In this document: in pieces, positions 11,571-26,269 of the stretch
Layout: every line of letters begins with the position of its first letter
Position numbering within the stretch: position 1 is the first letter of the stretch
Made by a program: the position numbers and the translations under genes
Origin: an uncultured delta proteobacterium
Lineage (GTDB): Bacteria; Desulfobacterota; BSN033; UBA1163
Direction of reading: 5' to 3'
Length of the DNA: 64,000 nucleotides
Assembly: GCA_963827685.1 (NCBI GenBank)
Contig: CAWHBU010000003.1
Coordinates: forward strand, 736,001-800,000
The notes under the pieces: generated by a model
Database searches by the model: none
Seen by the model: the letters and a program-made list of their open reading frames with translations, nothing else
Told to the model about the DNA's origin: nothing

Positions 11571-11969
11571 CTAATCTTTTCCTTTTTTCTTCAGAAAACC
11601 GAGGAGGTCGGATTCCTTGGAAGATTTTGTATTAGGCTTCTCCTTTTCAATGCCGGGCTTCAATTCTTCTCTTTTCAACTCCTTCTCCCGGATCATATGT
11701 CTCTCAATCCAGTGGTCGAGAGCTTTCACATCGAAAAGAACCCGGTCCCCAATTTTGAGGTAAGGAAGTTTTTTCAGGGAGGCCATCCGGTAGACGGTGT
11801 CTGTCGAAAGGCTTAAGTACTGGCTCGCTTCTTTGGCAGTAATCAATCTTCGGAGTTCGGGAATCTTTTTCATCCGGTCATCGATCCGTTCAAAATACTT
11901 CTCGAGCAGCAGCTCTGCCAGCATGTCTAAGAATTCTTTGACCGGAGGCCGGTATTCTTCTTGTGCCAT
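11571..11969 (-). CDS. Excisionase-like HTH_17 DNA-binding protein
   Basis: LITAKEASQYLSLSTDTVYRM...LPYLKIG...LDHWIE. Confidence 0.8.
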   Translation of the reverse strand: MAQEEYRPPVKEFLDMLAELLLEKYFERIDDRMKKIPELRRLITAKEASQYLSLSTDTVYRMASLKKLPYLKIGDRVLFDVKALDHWIERHMIREKELKREELKPGIEKEKPNTKSSKESDLLGFLKKKGKD

Positions 11970-11997: not shown

Positions 11998-13365
11998 TCA
12001 CCGTTCTTTTTCTCTTGCCACTTTCTGAATCTTCTTGAGGAGAGCGATGTTTTCTGTATGACCGGTCAGATGGGCAGTCACTTTTCCTCGAATCGGACGG
12101 TTGAGAAGATAGAAATCGCCAATCAAGTCAAGAATCTTATGCCGGACAAATTCGTCAGGAAATCGAAGTTCGGTGTTGACGACCTTCTCGTCATCAACCA
12201 GGATGACGTTGCTGAGTCGCCCACCCCCTCCCATCCCCATCCGTTCGAGCATCTTATAATCCTTGACAAAGCTAAAGGTTCTCGCTGGAGCGATCTCATC
12301 CTTGAAGGCCTCCTCGCTCCCTAAGATAAAGGCCAGGGTCTGCTGCCCGATGGGAGGGGGATAATCCAAAAAATAGTGAACAGAAAAGGTTTCAGCAGGT
12401 TCAATGACCAGAGACTTATCCCGATGGACGACCTGCAGTCGACGATCGATGATCAATTCGTCCACCCTCTCCTCTTGTTCCTCCACACCCGCCTCTTCGA
12501 CAATCTTACAAAACTCCAAAGCCGAGCCGTCCATCACCGGAATCTCTTCAATCATCTTCACCATCAAGTTGGTGATACGATAGGCGTGCAGCACTGCCAT
12601 GAGGTGCTCGACCGTCCTCGCAACGGCTCTCCCCTTTTTCAGAGAAGTGGCAGACTCTGTCGTTTCGACATAGTCGACATGGGCAGGAACCACTTCGTCC
12701 GCCGAGATGTTTCCGAACAGGATCCCGCTATGAGGGGGCAGGGGTTGAAGAAGGAGTCCTGTTTTTTTCCCAGAAAAAAGTCCTGTTCCGTAAAGCACCA
12801 TGCTCTGCTTCAGAGTACGCTGAGGCAATAAGGAGGTCCCTTTCTTGTTCGCAACCTCCTTGGCTAAGGGAATCGCTTCCCGGACGGAGGAAACGGGAGG
12901 TCCGGTGACTTCTCCGGCAATCTCTTTTGGAAAGATCTTCGTGGCCTGGAAGGGTTCTTCGGTGACAATTTCCCCCGATCGCTGGACGGTCAGCAACTCC
13001 TTCTGATGATTAAGGGCTCGATGGATGGTCATAAGAAGAACATCAAGAGAAAGAGGTTTTTCAATGAAGTCAAAAGCCCCTAATTTCACAGCGGTCATGG
13101 CAGTCGAGATCGTTGCATGACCGGAGATCATAATCACTTGACACTCTGGGGCAATCCATTTGAGCCGTTTCAATACCTCGATGCCATCCATCCCCGGCAT
13201 CCAGATATCGAGAAGCGTAACATCCGGCCCTTCTTCCTGAAAAACTTTTATTGCCTCTTCTCCACTCTTCGCCTGGGCGACTCGGAAACCTTCATCCTCC
13301 AGAACCCCCGCGATCGATTGGATCACTCTTTCCTCATCATCCACGATGAGGACTTTTCTCTCCAT
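11998..13365 (-). CDS. lpxC: Receiver domain fused to UDP-3-O-acyl-GlcNAc deacetylase
   Basis: N-terminal VLIVDDE/LLDIWMP/FIEKP receiver; C-terminal QRTL, TVEHLMA, DGSA, IAPARTF, RHKILDLIGD, GH. Confidence 0.9.
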   Translation of the reverse strand: MERKVLIVDDEERVIQSIAGVLEDEGFRVAQAKSGEEAIKVFQEEGPDVTLLDIWMPGMDGIEVLKRLKWIAPECQVIMISGHATISTAMTAVKLGAFDFIEKPLSLDVLLMTIHRALNHQKELLTVQRSGEIVTEEPFQATKIFPKEIAGEVTGPPVSSVREAIPLAKEVANKKGTSLLPQRTLKQSMVLYGTGLFSGKKTGLLLQPLPPHSGILFGNISADEVVPAHVDYVETTESATSLKKGRAVARTVEHLMAVLHAYRITNLMVKMIEEIPVMDGSALEFCKIVEEAGVEEQEERVDELIIDRRLQVVHRDKSLVIEPAETFSVHYFLDYPPPIGQQTLAFILGSEEAFKDEIAPARTFSFVKDYKMLERMGMGGGGRLSNVILVDDEKVVNTELRFPDEFVRHKILDLIGDFYLLNRPIRGKVTAHLTGHTENIALLKKIQKVAREKER

Positions 13366-20087: not shown

Positions 20088-21706
20088 GGGCTGTTGCTCA
20101 AAAGCCCAATTCAAAAATATCTGACAGTTTGAGTTTCCATGAATGATAGCCGAGGGTAAGTAAAACCAAATAGCACCATTCGGCCAATTTTTGAGTTCAT
20201 TAGCTCCTTAAAATCTGAAAAGGACCTTATCTCCCTTGTCACAGCCCCTTTGATCTGCTCCATCATCACCGATGGACTTCTCTTTAGGTAAGATCCGTAC
20301 CTAAGCAAAACCTCAATGTTCTGGACAGCAGAGATCAGGTATTCCTGTATCTGCACCCGCCAAAGCCCTCTCCATCGTGCCCGGTCATATCCATACCGCG
20401 TCCCTCTGGCATAGGAACGCTCCATCAAATGCTGCCTCACTTTGATATCCCGCTTCGCTTTGGCCGATCGACTCGCTTCTCGCATCCTGTCTAGATCTTC
20501 CTGCCTCAGATGTCGCTTAATTGTCCGACCTGATCTGTTTCTAGTACACTGCTCTCTTAAGTCACATGCTGCACAAATCTTCTTGGGTGCAGCGTAATCT
20601 CTACTTTGCCGACTCATATGTAATGATCTAGGCTTCAACCGATGCCCAGCTGGACAACGATAGGTGTCACTCTCCCGATCATACTCAAACCGCTCTTCCC
20701 CAAAGATATTCTGCTTTTCTGTACGCTTCAATGAAATTTCCCTCAAGTCCGGCATGTGGGCCTCTACTCCTCTATCATGACAGGCCAAAAAGTTCTCGAT
20801 CGTCCCGTATTTGCTGTCGGCCACCACCGTATCCGCATTGATCCCTGTATTTAAACGGTGGCTCTCTATCAGAGGAATCATCTCATGCGCTTCATTGACA
20901 TCTCCTGTTGTCGTCTCGATCGCCGTGATCACTTCACTCCGCTCATCCACGGCCCGATGTACCTGATAGGAGAGTTTGGGCTTGCCACGATTCACAATCG
21001 ATGCATCCGGATCGGTCGTTGAAATGTATCGGCTGTTCTCTTTAACGTATCTCCTGGAGGAATCCGTGCTCTCGCTCTTTTCCTCTAATCGTGCTTCCAG
21101 CTTCTTGTAGCCCTCCTGGAGTTGAACCTTCAACGATCGCGTGTCGATCACGGAGTTGTTCGATGCATCCGCATCCACCAGGCTCGAATCCACAAAGATC
21201 TTTCTGCCGTCCACTAACCCCGCCTCCACACATTGCCACACCATTCGCTCAAAGAACCCCCTAAACGCTTCCACTCCCCACCGCGCCCTGGCTTTACTCA
21301 AAACACTGTGATCCGGCACCTCACTGTCTATGTCGTACCCTAAAAACCATAGCCAGTCTAAACGCATGGGGATCGTTTCCATTAACTCTCGTTCCGATCG
21401 AACATTGTAAAGAACTAACAGCAACATCATCTTCAGGATTACAGGAGGGGGAATGGACACATTCCCGTTGCCCCCATAGGTGTCTCTGACCTCTGCATAG
21501 ATGAAGTTAAAGTCAATCTGCTCTTGAATCCTTCTCAGAAGGTGTGTCCGGGGAATCCTTTATTCCAGGTTCATATGATGATAGAAGATCTTCGGCTGAA
21601 TTCCTGTCTGTTGTCCCATCATGGCAATATCTCCATTCCAGATTTGTGCTGCCATGCTTATAGCTCGAATGTATAATCGTTGCAAGTATCATTTGGGCAA
21701 CAGCCC
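20088..21706 (-). mobile_element. IS1182-family insertion sequence
   Basis: TIRs GGGCTGTTGCTCAAA / TTTGGGCAACAGCCC (14 of 15 match); TCAAT on both flanks. Confidence 0.88.
20111..21622 (-). pseudogene. IS1182 transposase with a premature TAA at codon 21
   Basis: MMGQQTGIQPKIFYHHMNLE*RIPRTHLL is in frame with PDHSVLSKAR, VDSSLVDADA, ADSKYG and CPAG. Confidence 0.85.
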
Positions 21707-23232: not shown

Positions 23233-24942
23233 TTATGTTTTAATTCCTGCTTCTTTCATTGCTTTCAAATACTCTCCCTTCAATTGTTCTTTCGAGATAC
23301 CATGGTCAATGAAATCCCAAGGAAAGATTTCATCCAAATCCCTTTTTCGATAGACGTAGAAGTCAGCGTTGATGCTGGTCTCTCGAACGGCCTGCCTCCA
23401 ATTTCCCTGATACCGATGGGTTGCCATCAATATCTTCCCCACCCTCCGATCTCCTTTTGAGAGCAGAGCCTGAACATAAGCCCATTTGGGAAGGTCGTGG
23501 ATCATCTCCATTCCTTTTTCACCTTGAACTCCCCTTTGAATCATCTTTAACTTCTTCTTTAAGTCCCCGACTTCTTCCAAGGGCACCCACTGAAAGGGCG
23601 TAGCTGGTTTTGGAATAAAGGGGTTGACGCTCAGAATTAACCTCCATCTTTTCTCCCGGTGCTTTTGATTCGAGAGAATCTGATGCCGAATCCGTTTGGC
23701 GAGGAGGAGAATTTCTCTAATATCCTCATCGGTCTCAGAGGGAAGGCCAATTAAAAAATAGCACTTGATGCGGGAGAGACCGTTCTCAACCAACGTATCA
23801 ATGGATCTTAAAATCTCATCTTCACGATAACCCTTCTTCAACATCTTTCGGAGTCTTTCTGAACCTGCCTCAGGGGCAATGGCTACGGTGCGATCCTCTC
23901 CCTCTCTCAGACACTGAATCAGGGGTGGCGTGACGGCATCTACTCTCAAGGAGGATAAAGAAATCCCTCCTTGCTGAGAGAGGATACTCTGGCACAATGG
24001 GAGGAGTTTGGGATGGTCGGAGACCGCAGTCCCGGTCAAACCAATCCGATGCTCTTTTAAAAGGGCTTCCTTTGAAATCGATTCCAGAAAGGAAAGGCTT
24101 CGGTTTCGAAAAGGATGGTAAACAAAACAAGCTGCACAGAAACGACAACCCCTGGGGCAACCCCGGTTTACCTCTACCAAAGCCATCTCTTTAAACTCCG
24201 TGTCCGGAGTGAAAAGAGTAGATTGCGTTGGGAATTGATCGAGCTTAGGGACCCATCTCCGTTTGATCTTTCTGGGAAATCCCGGCTCGGGATCCATCGC
24301 CTCTATCTTTCCATTTTCAGCATAACTCACTCGATAAAACTTTGGAATGTAAACCCCTTCCAGCCCAGCCAGATTCTTCAAAAGATCGTCCTTCTCTCTT
24401 TTCCTTTTATCTGAAAGGGTTTGACGACAAACCTCTAAGAATTCTCCCATCACCTCTTCCGCCTCTCCGAGAATAAAGAGGTCAAAGAATTCACTGATGG
24501 ATTCCGGATTTAAAAAAACGGCGACCCCTCCAGCTATCACCCACGGATATCTTCCATTACGAAGACGGCTCTCTAAGGGAATATGCGCTAGTTCCAGAAG
24601 CGTGAGGACATTGAGAAAATCGTTCTCGAAAGAGATAGAGAAGGCTAAGATATCGAAGCTGGAGAGAGGTTTTTGGGATTCTAACGAGAAAAGAGGGGTT
24701 TGGGTATTGCGATATTCTTGGAGATCTTCTGAGTCAGGAAGGAAGGCTCTTTCACAGACCACATCGTCATCAGCGTTTAAAATCTGATAAAGGGTCTGAA
24801 ATCCAAGGTTGGACATCCCCACATGGTAAGCGTTGGGATAGAGAAGACAAATCGTAATTTTCCCGCCCCATGGTTTTCGGACAGTTCCTTTCTCTTTTTC
24901 AAGCACACCCTTAGCCTTCTGAACAAGTTTCCAGGAAGTCAT
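23233..24942 (-). CDS. B12-binding-domain radical SAM protein
   Basis: YHVGMSNLGFQ, RGCPRGCRFC, APEAGSERLR, PFIPKPATPFQW. Confidence 0.88.
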   Translation of the reverse strand: MTSWKLVQKAKGVLEKEKGTVRKPWGGKITICLLYPNAYHVGMSNLGFQTLYQILNADDDVVCERAFLPDSEDLQEYRNTQTPLFSLESQKPLSSFDILAFSISFENDFLNVLTLLELAHIPLESRLRNGRYPWVIAGGVAVFLNPESISEFFDLFILGEAEEVMGEFLEVCRQTLSDKRKREKDDLLKNLAGLEGVYIPKFYRVSYAENGKIEAMDPEPGFPRKIKRRWVPKLDQFPTQSTLFTPDTEFKEMALVEVNRGCPRGCRFCAACFVYHPFRNRSLSFLESISKEALLKEHRIGLTGTAVSDHPKLLPLCQSILSQQGGISLSSLRVDAVTPPLIQCLREGEDRTVAIAPEAGSERLRKMLKKGYREDEILRSIDTLVENGLSRIKCYFLIGLPSETDEDIREILLLAKRIRHQILSNQKHREKRWRLILSVNPFIPKPATPFQWVPLEEVGDLKKKLKMIQRGVQGEKGMEMIHDLPKWAYVQALLSKGDRRVGKILMATHRYQGNWRQAVRETSINADFYVYRKRDLDEIFPWDFIDHGISKEQLKGEYLKAMKEAGIKT

Positions 24943-25063: not shown

Positions 25064-26269
25064 TCAGTCGGCCTGTTTTCTTAAAAAAGTTGGGATATCA
25101 AAACGATCCTCATCCTCAACAGAGAAATCCGACGGTGGATCCAATTTTAGTTCATCGAACCGCTCGCTCGTCTTCCCCCTTCTCATAAAAGCAGGGATGT
25201 CCCTGTTATTCTCTTTGTTGCCAAAAGAGAAGTGTGGAAAATCTTTATTCTGCTCTCGGAGGCCAAATGAGATAGGAGCCATTTTCTTAAACTGAGATGT
25301 TCTCTTATCCTCTTTCTTTCCGAAACCGGTAGCAATCACGGTTACCCGAATCTCTTCCTTCATGGTTTTGTCGACCACCATCCCCCAGATCACATTGGCA
25401 TCTTCATGGGCTTCCTTCTGAATCAGAGTGGTTGCCTCATTGATTTCGCTGAGGGTCATATTCTCGCCCCCGGTGATGTTGATGAGAAGCCCCCGGGCTC
25501 CTTCAATCGTAATATCTTCCAAGAGAGGGCTGGAAATCGCTCTTTGGGCAGCTTCCACGGATCGATTCTCACCCATAGCAATTCCTGTTCCCATCAATGC
25601 CATTCCCGTCTCAGACATGACGGTGCGGACATCGGCAAAGTCCAGATTGATGATTCCATGGCCAACGATGATATCTGAGATCCCTTTGGCAGCATGATAG
25701 AGAACTTCGTCTGCTTTCTTGAAGGCCTCCAGCAGAGTCATGCTCTTCCCGCTGACACTAAGGAGACGCTGGTTCGGGATCGTGATGAGGGCATCCGCTG
25801 TCATCTTGAGATTGGCCAACCCTTCCTCTGCCTGTTTCATCCTCTTCTTTCCTTCGAAGTAGAAGGGTTTGGTCACAATCGCTACGGTCAGGGCACCTAT
25901 TTCACGGGCCACTTCTGCAATCACCGGCGCCCCGCCCGTACCCGTCCCGCCGCCTAACCCGGCTGTGATGAAGACCATGTCTGACCCTTTTAGAGCTTCG
26001 CGAATCTTCTCGATATCCTCGAGGGCAGCCTTCCTCCCTATCTCTGGATTGGCTCCGGCTCCCAAGCCCTTGGTCAAATTTTCGCCCAATTGCAATTTGA
26101 TGGGAGCCATATTTGCCGCCATCGCCTGGGCATCGGTATTGGCGGCGATGAACTCGACCCCGGAGAGTTGATAAGAAATCATGGTATTCAGGGCATTATT
26201 TCCTCCTCCTCCAATTCCGATGATCTTGACCTTGGCAGCCAAATTCTTATTTTCGTCGAATTCGATCAT
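25064..26269 (-). CDS. ftsZ: Cell division protein FtsZ
   Basis: GGGTGTG, NLDFADV, C-terminal DIPTFLRK. Confidence 0.98.
   Translation of the reverse strand: MIEFDENKNLAAKVKIIGIGGGGNNALNTMISYQLSGVEFIAANTDAQAMAANMAPIKLQLGENLTKGLGAGANPEIGRKAALEDIEKIREALKGSDMVFITAGLGGGTGTGGAPVIAEVAREIGALTVAIVTKPFYFEGKKRMKQAEEGLANLKMTADALITIPNQRLLSVSGKSMTLLEAFKKADEVLYHAAKGISDIIVGHGIINLDFADVRTVMSETGMALMGTGIAMGENRSVEAAQRAISSPLLEDITIEGARGLLINITGGENMTLSEINEATTLIQKEAHEDANVIWGMVVDKTMKEEIRVTVIATGFGKKEDKRTSQFKKMAPISFGLREQNKDFPHFSFGNKENNRDIPAFMRRGKTSERFDELKLDPPSDFSVEDEDRFDIPTFLRKQAD

Follow-up and report, generated by a model that had tools for sequence, protein, structure and literature searches.

A receiver domain fused to the sole LpxC of an uncultured delta proteobacterium and its candidate role in two-component control of lipid A synthesis

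The window analysed here is a 64,000-nucleotide stretch from an uncultured delta proteobacterium (contig CAWHBU010000003.1 of assembly GCA_963827685.1, positions 736,001 to 800,000). On its (-) strand, at 11998..13365, it carries a gene whose product joins a response-regulator receiver (REC) domain to a complete LpxC, the committed enzyme of lipid A synthesis. The fusion belongs to a widespread and apparently undescribed family in which a response regulator has this enzyme as its output. From comparative sequence analysis, we consider it fairly probable that an orphan NtrY-type histidine kinase phosphorylates Asp53 of the receiver and so sets LpxC output post-translationally, in place of transcriptional control. 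An earlier note on this DNA, made from its letters alone, had suggested that a two-component signal may control the enzyme directly. This proposal is supported, as a hypothesis, by the conserved phosphorylation-site residues, the purifying selection on the receiver, the presence of a single lpxC copy and the breadth of the fusion.

The gene starts with ATG and comprises 455 codons plus a stop codon in a single open reading frame (ORF). Its receiver spans residues 1-129 (12979..13365, (-)), ends in a long alpha5 helix (residues 107-129), and is matched by the Pfam model Response_reg (PF00072) over residues 5-114 with 110 bits (E 8.6e-32, cut-off 30.2). The catalytic domain, a zinc deacetylase, spans residues 179-455 (12001..12831, (-)). 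Here the Pfam model LpxC (PF03331) aligns along positions 1-267 of its 268 to residues 182-447 with 274.8 bits (E 1e-81, cut-off 27), and the NCBIfam equivalog model for lpxC, TIGR00325, reaches 231.5 bits (cut-off 187.25). The LpxC domain ends about eight residues before the stop codon, without an extended C-terminal tail. Between the two domains lies a disordered tether, residues 130-178 (12832..12978, (-)), which varies in both length and sequence among relatives. The matches to both domains bear out the reading of a receiver, a linker and a full LpxC within one frame, and the linker, which runs from about residue 122 or 130 to 180, is close to the 60 residues that the earlier note had estimated. 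Among the receiver-type NCBIfam models the top match is NtrX (NF051870), which aligns with the REC part only and reaches 122 bits against a cut-off of 600. Pfam gives no match to Sigma54_activat or HTH_8 in the 455-residue protein, which does not have the architecture of a sigma54 activator.

Both domains retain the residues expected of their families. The receiver carries VDDE (D9, D10), LLDIWMP (D53), SGH (S81-H83) and KP (K103-P104), with the codon of D53, the predicted phospho-acceptor, at 13207..13209 (-). The LpxC domain carries TVEH (E253, H254), HKILD (H409, K410, D413) and GH (H436). All of these motifs had been named from the letters, and all are present in the translation. The solved LpxC structures from P. 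aeruginosa, A. aeolicus and E. coli can be aligned to the catalytic domain, with phmmer matches of about 170 bits. In the alignment to P. aeruginosa LpxC, the zinc ligands H254, H409 and D413 are present together with E253, H436, T363, K410 and D417. Every zinc ligand and catalytic residue is the same as in the P. aeruginosa enzyme, and the sole difference in this set is F197 (codon 12775..12777, (-)), which occupies the position of His19 of P. aeruginosa and E. coli LpxC and changes the GLH motif to GLF.

An AlphaFold2 (AF2) model built from an alignment of 29 short fusions, that is, proteins with a receiver, a tether and LpxC, has a mean predicted local distance difference test score (pLDDT) of 83 and a predicted template modelling score (pTM) of 0.64. 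It contains a confident receiver (residues 1-129, pLDDT of about 90) with the five strand-helix units of a (beta-alpha)5 fold and a confident LpxC domain (residues 179-454), joined by a tether (residues 130-176) with a pLDDT below 50. Prediction of a complex between REC (residues 1-122) and LpxC (residues 181-455) from alignments gave 0.00 against a mark of 0.32, a value that speaks neither for nor against a contact.

The PF03331 model finds a single locus in the 5.23-Mb, 14-contig assembly, where an estimated completeness of 94.5% leaves room for a missed second lpxC copy. The fusion is thus the only lpxC identified in this genome, a point that the earlier note had raised for checking. Contig C6 carries lpxA (360 bits), lpxB (337 bits) and lpxK (300 bits).

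The fusion gene is not a chimera, because 24 of 24 further genomes from its own family (f1) carry the fusion at full length and because an independent contig bridges the junction. This contig (run X2, 12537-13054, among those listed) runs from LpxC through the entire tether into the receiver. Overlapping pieces from three other runs tile the fusion gene with no joints reported, and several studies recovered near-identical DNA in metagenomes of peat, wetland and sediment. The full-length fusion is also found in seven of eight genomes of a second family (f2), the eighth being 75% complete, and with a shorter tether in one genome of a third family. All 120 database homologues listed (81-98% identical) carry both PF03331 and PF00072, and the source databases label them plain LpxC. 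An assembly chimera had been named as a finding that would undo the proposal. The metagenome-type assembly and its estimated contamination of 8% speak for an artefact of assembly or gene calling. Against it stand the position of the gene within a contig of about 1.24 Mb, the same open frame in all family genomes and listed homologues, and the bridging contig without a joint. We rejected this explanation on the recurrence across genomes and the independent contig, and regard its probability as negligible.

Three minor variants of the gene were seen among relatives. In one family genome, which belongs to the same genus, the fusion is split into two overlapping frames (G008:C50:81088-82451), through a frameshift or a sequencing error. 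Another family genome has a single TAG inside the fusion match (G011:C128:4272-5636). A contig from run X4, from a related strain, lacks three bases at 12991, a frame-preserving deletion close to where the tether starts and in keeping with the tether's variability.

Among 144 short fusions, the receiver residues D10, S81, K103 and P104 are invariant, and Asp is found at D53 in 143 and at D9 in 142. The catalytic side is similarly constrained: in 50 sampled fused LpxC domains (35 short and 15 long, with 119 close relatives thinned to 10), E253, H254, H409, K410, D413, D417 and H436 occur in all 50 and the Thr in 49. For 55 pairs from 11 close coding sequences, a set that left out one locus with a TAG, the ratio of nonsynonymous to synonymous substitution rates (dN/dS) is 0.065 for REC, 0.068 for LpxC and 0.31 for the tether. 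In other words, purifying selection on the receiver is as strong as that on the catalytic domain, and the tether is about five times more relaxed than either. In 25 diverse short fusions the tether has a column conservation of 0.13-0.20 with 36-56% gaps, and its length ranges from 23 to 113 residues across the short forms.

The GLF motif, although present as the earlier note had observed, is not a property of the fusion. His is found at position 197 in 118 of the 144 short fusions, and Phe in only 21, all of which are at least 83% identical to this protein. A residue other than His at the His19 position also occurs in five of 56 rows classed as LpxC-only. In the available part of a review, His19 is described as a ligand-contacting residue rather than a zinc ligand. 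By its distribution among the aligned sequences, GLF is a trait of a young sub-clade; it was rejected as a functional clue for this reason and carries no weight for the interpretation. Fused and canonical LpxC domains differ consistently at just five signature positions, G203, Y262, K270, C286 and L389 in place of S, L, E, V and V, which are too few to define a docking surface. Two of them, Y262 and K270, lie just past the TVEH helix.

The description of the receiver as NtrC/NtrX-like proved correct, and identity, tree and signature motifs all place it with NtrX. In relatives whose lpxC is unfused, the sequence most similar to this receiver, at 54-59% identity, belongs to the operon-encoded NtrX, some 3 kb away from lpxC. 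The other 51 receivers of the genome under study are at most 43% identical to it. When 96 receivers are placed in one tree, the fused receivers form a group that takes in the three operon NtrX receivers; it has 37 rows and a Shimodaira-Hasegawa approximate likelihood ratio test (SH-aLRT) value of 85, and none of the 51 other receivers falls within it. In the alpha1 helix, 6-8 of 15 positions agree with NtrX, versus 2-4 of 15 with the closest paralogues. In addition, the signature ISGH...KLGAFDFIEKPLSL is common to the fused receiver and NtrX, where the paralogues have TAY/TAF...YDYITKPF. These comparisons indicate that the fused receiver derives from NtrX.

In the unfused relatives G031, G032 and G039, Pfam domains establish the gene order lpxC, DUF4390, NtrY-type kinase (NtrY_N, HAMP, PAS, HisKA, HATPase) and NtrX-type regulator (REC, sigma54 AAA+, lid, HTH_8), with smpB next in G031. 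The genome that carries the fusion has kept the sensor module of this operon on contig C6, in the form of a DUF4390 gene (G000:C6:209106-209573) and an NtrY orthologue (G000:C6:206840-209047) with 47% full-length identity to the kinase of G039. This pair (G000:C6:206840-209573) provides a candidate for the cognate kinase, whose identification the earlier note had suggested. The locus reads dnaG-rpoD-...-DUF4390-NtrY-SmpB, and no sigma54 regulator is found there beside DUF4390-NtrY. Compared with the order lpxC-DUF4390-NtrY-NtrX-SmpB of G031, it has lost both lpxC and ntrX.

The kinase locus has a corresponding organization in the fusion-bearing families f1 and f2. NtrX or LpxC stands beside NtrY in none of their 28 loci: 24 of them have SmpB next, another two are truncated at a contig end, and the last two continue into other DNA. 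In the unfused family f3, the arrangement LpxC-DUF4390-NtrY-NtrX is kept in both loci. NtrY is detected at E <= 1e-80 in 38 of 41 genomes, and the remaining three have fragments at contig ends (G005 and G014) or at a scaffold gap. G033, which has two fusions and no NtrY at this threshold, was examined as a possible counter-example and rejected, given that its scaffold has 100-N gaps and that DUF4390 and the N-terminus of NtrY run into one.

Features of the kinase itself also connect it with the fusion. Helix 1 of its dimerisation and histidine phosphotransfer (DHp) domain, after the phospho-His (HEIKNPLTPIQLSAQRLRKRY), is near-identical whether the kinase occurs with a separate NtrX, with an adjacent long fusion or with an unlinked short fusion, and it is clearly unlike that of eight paralogous kinases of the same genome. 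Moreover, in Nitrospinota the order is DUF4390-NtrY-[NtrX::LpxC] on the same strand in four of four loci.

The wider family includes longer proteins that still carry other parts of the regulator. A library of 1.84 billion representatives (50% identity) gave 1,733 matches at E <= 1e-30, of which the best 150 were classified. The best matches are proteins of 650-736 residues with the Pfam architecture REC - sigma54 AAA+ - lid - LpxC, one of them still with HTH_8, and their AAA+ scores fall from 141 to below 30 bits. Among these best 150 of 1,733 representatives there are 36 complete fusions, comprising 21 short and 15 long forms, and REC has been lost in none. None of the 15 long forms has the GAFTGA loop or the Walker B Glu, and therefore these proteins cannot be sigma54 activators. 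Walker A is kept in about 12 of the 15 (P0121-P0148), and the degenerate AAA+ module may serve for nucleotide binding or as an oligomerisation scaffold. An Acidobacteriota locus carries the short form.

In a tree of 105 LpxC domains, from which one short row was dropped, a branch with SH-aLRT 99 and a length of 0.55 separates fused from canonical domains. The canonical side holds 41 unfused LpxCs, including ones of the same class. The fused side holds all 50 fused domains and 14 rows without a detected receiver, most of them fragments truncated at the N-terminus. Long forms are scattered among short ones with strong support, a pattern that implies repeated loss of the AAA+ module.

The survey of domain architecture therefore finds the fusion kept across its family and in other phyla. 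Of 301 genomes sampled from the phylum, each at least 80% complete, 77 have a fusion-type match, defined by E <= 2.7e-79 with an LpxC-domain identity of 48-100%; the open frame is 401-1423 residues long in 76 of the 77, and for most of them an N-terminal extension with a presumed receiver is deduced from frame length. The remainder consists of one borderline case, canonical matches (E >= 7.9e-56, identity of at most 42%, frames of about 285-400 residues) and 65 genomes without a match at 1e-42. Two short-fusion copies, 56-58% identical to the one in the window, are found in G033:C1 (L019 and L020, at about 1.533 Mb and 1.663 Mb). A phage-integrase-family gene (L020:6608-7243) follows the second copy and hints at mobility of the fusion gene.

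On a broader scale, these proteins might represent a regulator that became fused to the enzyme encoded by its own target gene and repeatedly shed its ATPase and DNA-binding modules. This would add a third way of controlling LpxC to transcription and regulated proteolysis, found in roughly one in four of the genomes sampled from the phylum and in members of other phyla. This generalization is a tentative one, to which we give slightly less than even credence.

The mechanism that we favour can be set out as follows. NtrX, a sigma54-type regulator of lpxC expression in related bacteria, became fused to LpxC, and in this lineage the fusion protein subsequently lost its AAA+ and DNA-binding parts and kept the receiver alone. 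The ancestral sensor module, a predicted periplasmic DUF4390 protein and the membrane histidine kinase NtrY, persists as the orphan pair on C6. NtrY, modulated by DUF4390, would phosphorylate Asp53, and the phosphorylation state would set LpxC activity. Lipid A synthesis would then follow an envelope signal at the level of protein instead of transcription. Because the tether is disordered and variable, coupling would presumably proceed by direct contact between REC and LpxC, by receiver dimerisation or by a change in stability. Possible forms include relief of an inhibitory contact, as in CheB, and dimerisation through the long alpha5 region.

Several observations weigh against this mechanism. 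The kinase (contig C6) and the fusion (contig C3) are unlinked in this genome, and consequently the case for their pairing is built from shared ancestry, their adjacency in other lineages and the conservation of contact surfaces. The 28 loci of the synteny comparison are kin and possibly reflect one or two events. In seven of them (L034, L036, L048, L050, L051, L052 and L054), one of which is cut by a contig end, no DUF4390 gene is detected upstream of NtrY at E <= 1e-8 with the query from the genome under study, which could be due to divergence or loss. The receiver tree has 125 columns and moderate support: the group has an SH-aLRT of 85, whereas the branch separating the receivers of the same genome has 40. 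Judged from the structure model, coupling through a disordered and poorly conserved linker is unlikely.

The promoter evidence for a change from transcriptional control is also weak. A scan for sigma54 -24/-12 elements found 9-of-11 matches to the consensus before two of three unfused lpxC genes (L016:4699-4714 and L015:5066-5081, for G031 and G039), no site before the unfused lpxC of G032, and no score as high as 8 before any of 15 fused genes. Random 350-nt segments of this genome reach 9 in 1.85% of draws, and the contrast between fused and unfused genes is suggestive only.

On the sign of regulation, published data from other bacteria differ. According to the available part of Lemmer et al. 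2020, an R. sphaeroides ntrYX mutant has 8.8-fold more lpxC transcript and more lipopolysaccharide (LPS), and no NtrX site is reported there at lpxC (PMC7240162). By contrast, DVU2934 of D. vulgaris is a sigma54-type activator.

The receiver could also act on something other than catalysis or answer to another kinase. It is unlikely, though worth serious attention, that the phosphorylated receiver controls the abundance or location of LpxC, for instance as a phosphorylation-dependent degradation tag, as an adaptor handle for an AAA+ protease, or through recruitment to the membrane or to the kinase. Enterobacterial LpxC is controlled by FtsH/LapB proteolysis. A match to PF18073 at C4:381562, considered as a candidate LapB, was set aside as uninformative, the same model matching 10 of 14 control genomes, including Gram-positives. 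A disordered and variable tether suits a tag better than rigid allosteric coupling, the five signature positions make no large new docking surface evident, and characterised control of LpxC acts on the protein level in the part of the literature covered by the available portion of a recent review (PMC12444477). Against this reading, no protease adaptor or degron was identified, and the computed evidence fits it and control of activity alike.

Quite improbable, in our estimation, is a functional receiver whose phosphodonor is another histidine kinase or acetyl phosphate. Such a donor would fit the lack of linkage between the NtrY and fusion genes, the absence of a kinase among the neighbours of the fusion and the at least 47 kinase-like matches to the NtrY query in the genome. 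However, NtrY is kept without an adjacent regulator at all 28 loci and is present, in full or as a fragment, in all 41 genomes examined. The DHp helix and the receiver alpha1 helix also stay NtrY/NtrX-like, and the kinase adjoins the fusion in the four Nitrospinota loci.

The two remaining explanations question either the receiver or the enzyme. Decay and repeated loss of the AAA+ and HTH modules show that parts of the ancestral regulator are dispensable, and by extension the receiver could be a vestige or a phosphate sink of the NtrY pathway that has no effect on LpxC. We judge this very unlikely, given that none of the 36 complete fusions among the best 150 representatives has lost REC, that the phosphorylation-site residues are near-invariant, and that REC and the catalytic domain have the same dN/dS, about one-fifth of the value for the tether. 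A pure sink would also not need to stay fused to the sole LpxC across several phyla.

Least credible of these functional alternatives is a changed role or substrate for the LpxC-like domain. It draws on the placement of the fused domains in their own group behind a long, well-supported branch, on their lower Pfam scores (about 260-280 bits, versus 345-372 for the unfused LpxCs of relatives) and on the Phe at the His19 position. But no other LpxC homologue was identified in this genome, where lpxA, lpxB and lpxK are present, the TIGR00325 cut-off is exceeded, and the zinc and catalytic residues are conserved. Most fusions also keep His19, and only five positions distinguish the clade. Phosphorylation of Asp53 by the orphan NtrY, with LpxC output as its target, remains the reading that we consider fairly probable.

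Response regulators with enzymatic outputs include CheB, which consists of a receiver and a methylesterase, as well as PleD/WspR and RpfG. The fusion resembles CheB in having a receiver, a flexible linker and a hydrolytic enzyme domain, and the expected logic may be the same, with phosphorylation governing enzyme output. Unlike CheB-type regulators, the fusion has as its output not a signalling enzyme but a zinc deacetylase with a biosynthetic role in the essential pathway to lipid A. The comparison with CheB rests on layout, and the AF2 model of the fusion has two confident domains and a disordered tether.

Compared with canonical LpxC from E. coli, P. aeruginosa and A. aeolicus, the fusion has the same full-length catalytic domain with the same zinc ligands and catalytic residues. 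It differs in its N-terminal receiver and tether, its lack of an extended C-terminal tail, its separate clade, its location away from ftsZ and its Phe at the His19 position. The long REC-AAA+-LpxC forms of Nitrospinota and of families of the same phylum share its receiver type and LpxC clade, and the LpxC domain is 58% identical to that of P0121. In contrast, these forms retain a degenerate AAA+/lid module of 256-339 residues, and the Nitrospinota ones lie directly behind DUF4390-NtrY. Bifunctional LpxC/FabZ (NF009667) is likewise a natural LpxC fusion, and its model matches the LpxC part here with 203 bits, far under the cut-off of 465. Its partner, however, is a C-terminal metabolic enzyme.

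The closest regulatory parallels are NtrY/NtrX (PlrS/PlrR) systems, including DVU2931-DVU2934 of D. vulgaris, with which the fusion shares an NtrX-type receiver, a retained DUF4390-NtrY module and a link to lpxC. The available part of Rajeev et al. 2011 gives lpxC as the single mapped target of the NtrC-family regulator DVU2934 and places lpxC of S. fumaroxidans directly upstream of an operon orthologous to that of DVU2934 (PMC3333781). For the sensor, a 2026 article in J Bacteriol, in its available part, presents genetic evidence that the DUF4390 protein PlrP acts via the periplasmic domain of the NtrY-family kinase PlrS (PMC13001219). The fusion differs from these systems in that it has no AAA+ or DNA-binding domain, so that its output is an enzyme and not a promoter. 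In addition, its gene lies outside the kinase operon, and it scores below the NtrX equivalog cut-off.

Regarding LpxC itself, the available portion of a 2025 review of lipid A regulation in the Journal of Biological Chemistry gives proteolysis, and transcription in a few alphaproteobacteria, as the controls (PMC12444477). The terms 'response regulator' and 'fusion' have zero occurrences in this review. A full-text literature search, with most subscription journals outside its scope, returned no paper that describes a REC-LpxC fusion or LpxC as the output of a response regulator, and a passing mention is possible.

LpxC determines the flux into lipid A, and it is among the major targets of antibiotics. 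A receiver on the sole LpxC suggests that a membrane sensor can reach outer-membrane synthesis quickly, at the protein level. One protein carries both the switch and the read-out, and the proposal is thus directly testable. The family is also a well-resolved example of a regulator and its target gene collapsing into a single protein that then lost modules for which it had no use.

The immediate neighbours of the fusion gene are genes for an aldehyde dehydrogenase and an excisionase-family HTH_17 protein, with no kinase among them. The HTH_17 gene (11571..11969, (-); Pfam HTH_17 and TIGR01764) begins 28 bases after the fusion gene and encodes 132 residues with a Lys-rich tail. The two genes keep this order at 11 of 11 family loci, whereas three other lineages lack the arrangement. 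A scan for sigma70 promoters and terminators around the fusion gene gave nothing decisive, and it found no convincing terminator between the two genes. From this arrangement, the HTH_17 gene may be co-transcribed with the fusion.

Farther away, the window contains a dcw (division and cell wall) cluster with mraW, ftsI, murE, murF, mraY, murD, ftsW, murC, murB, ddl, ftsQ, ftsA and ftsZ. The cluster ends with ftsZ (25064..26269, (-)), and no lpxC follows it, as the earlier note had remarked; the next gene is a radical-SAM gene (23233..24942, (-)). A DDE transposase gene (DUF772 / DDE_Tnp_1_6; 20111..21460, (-)) lies between the fusion region and this cluster.

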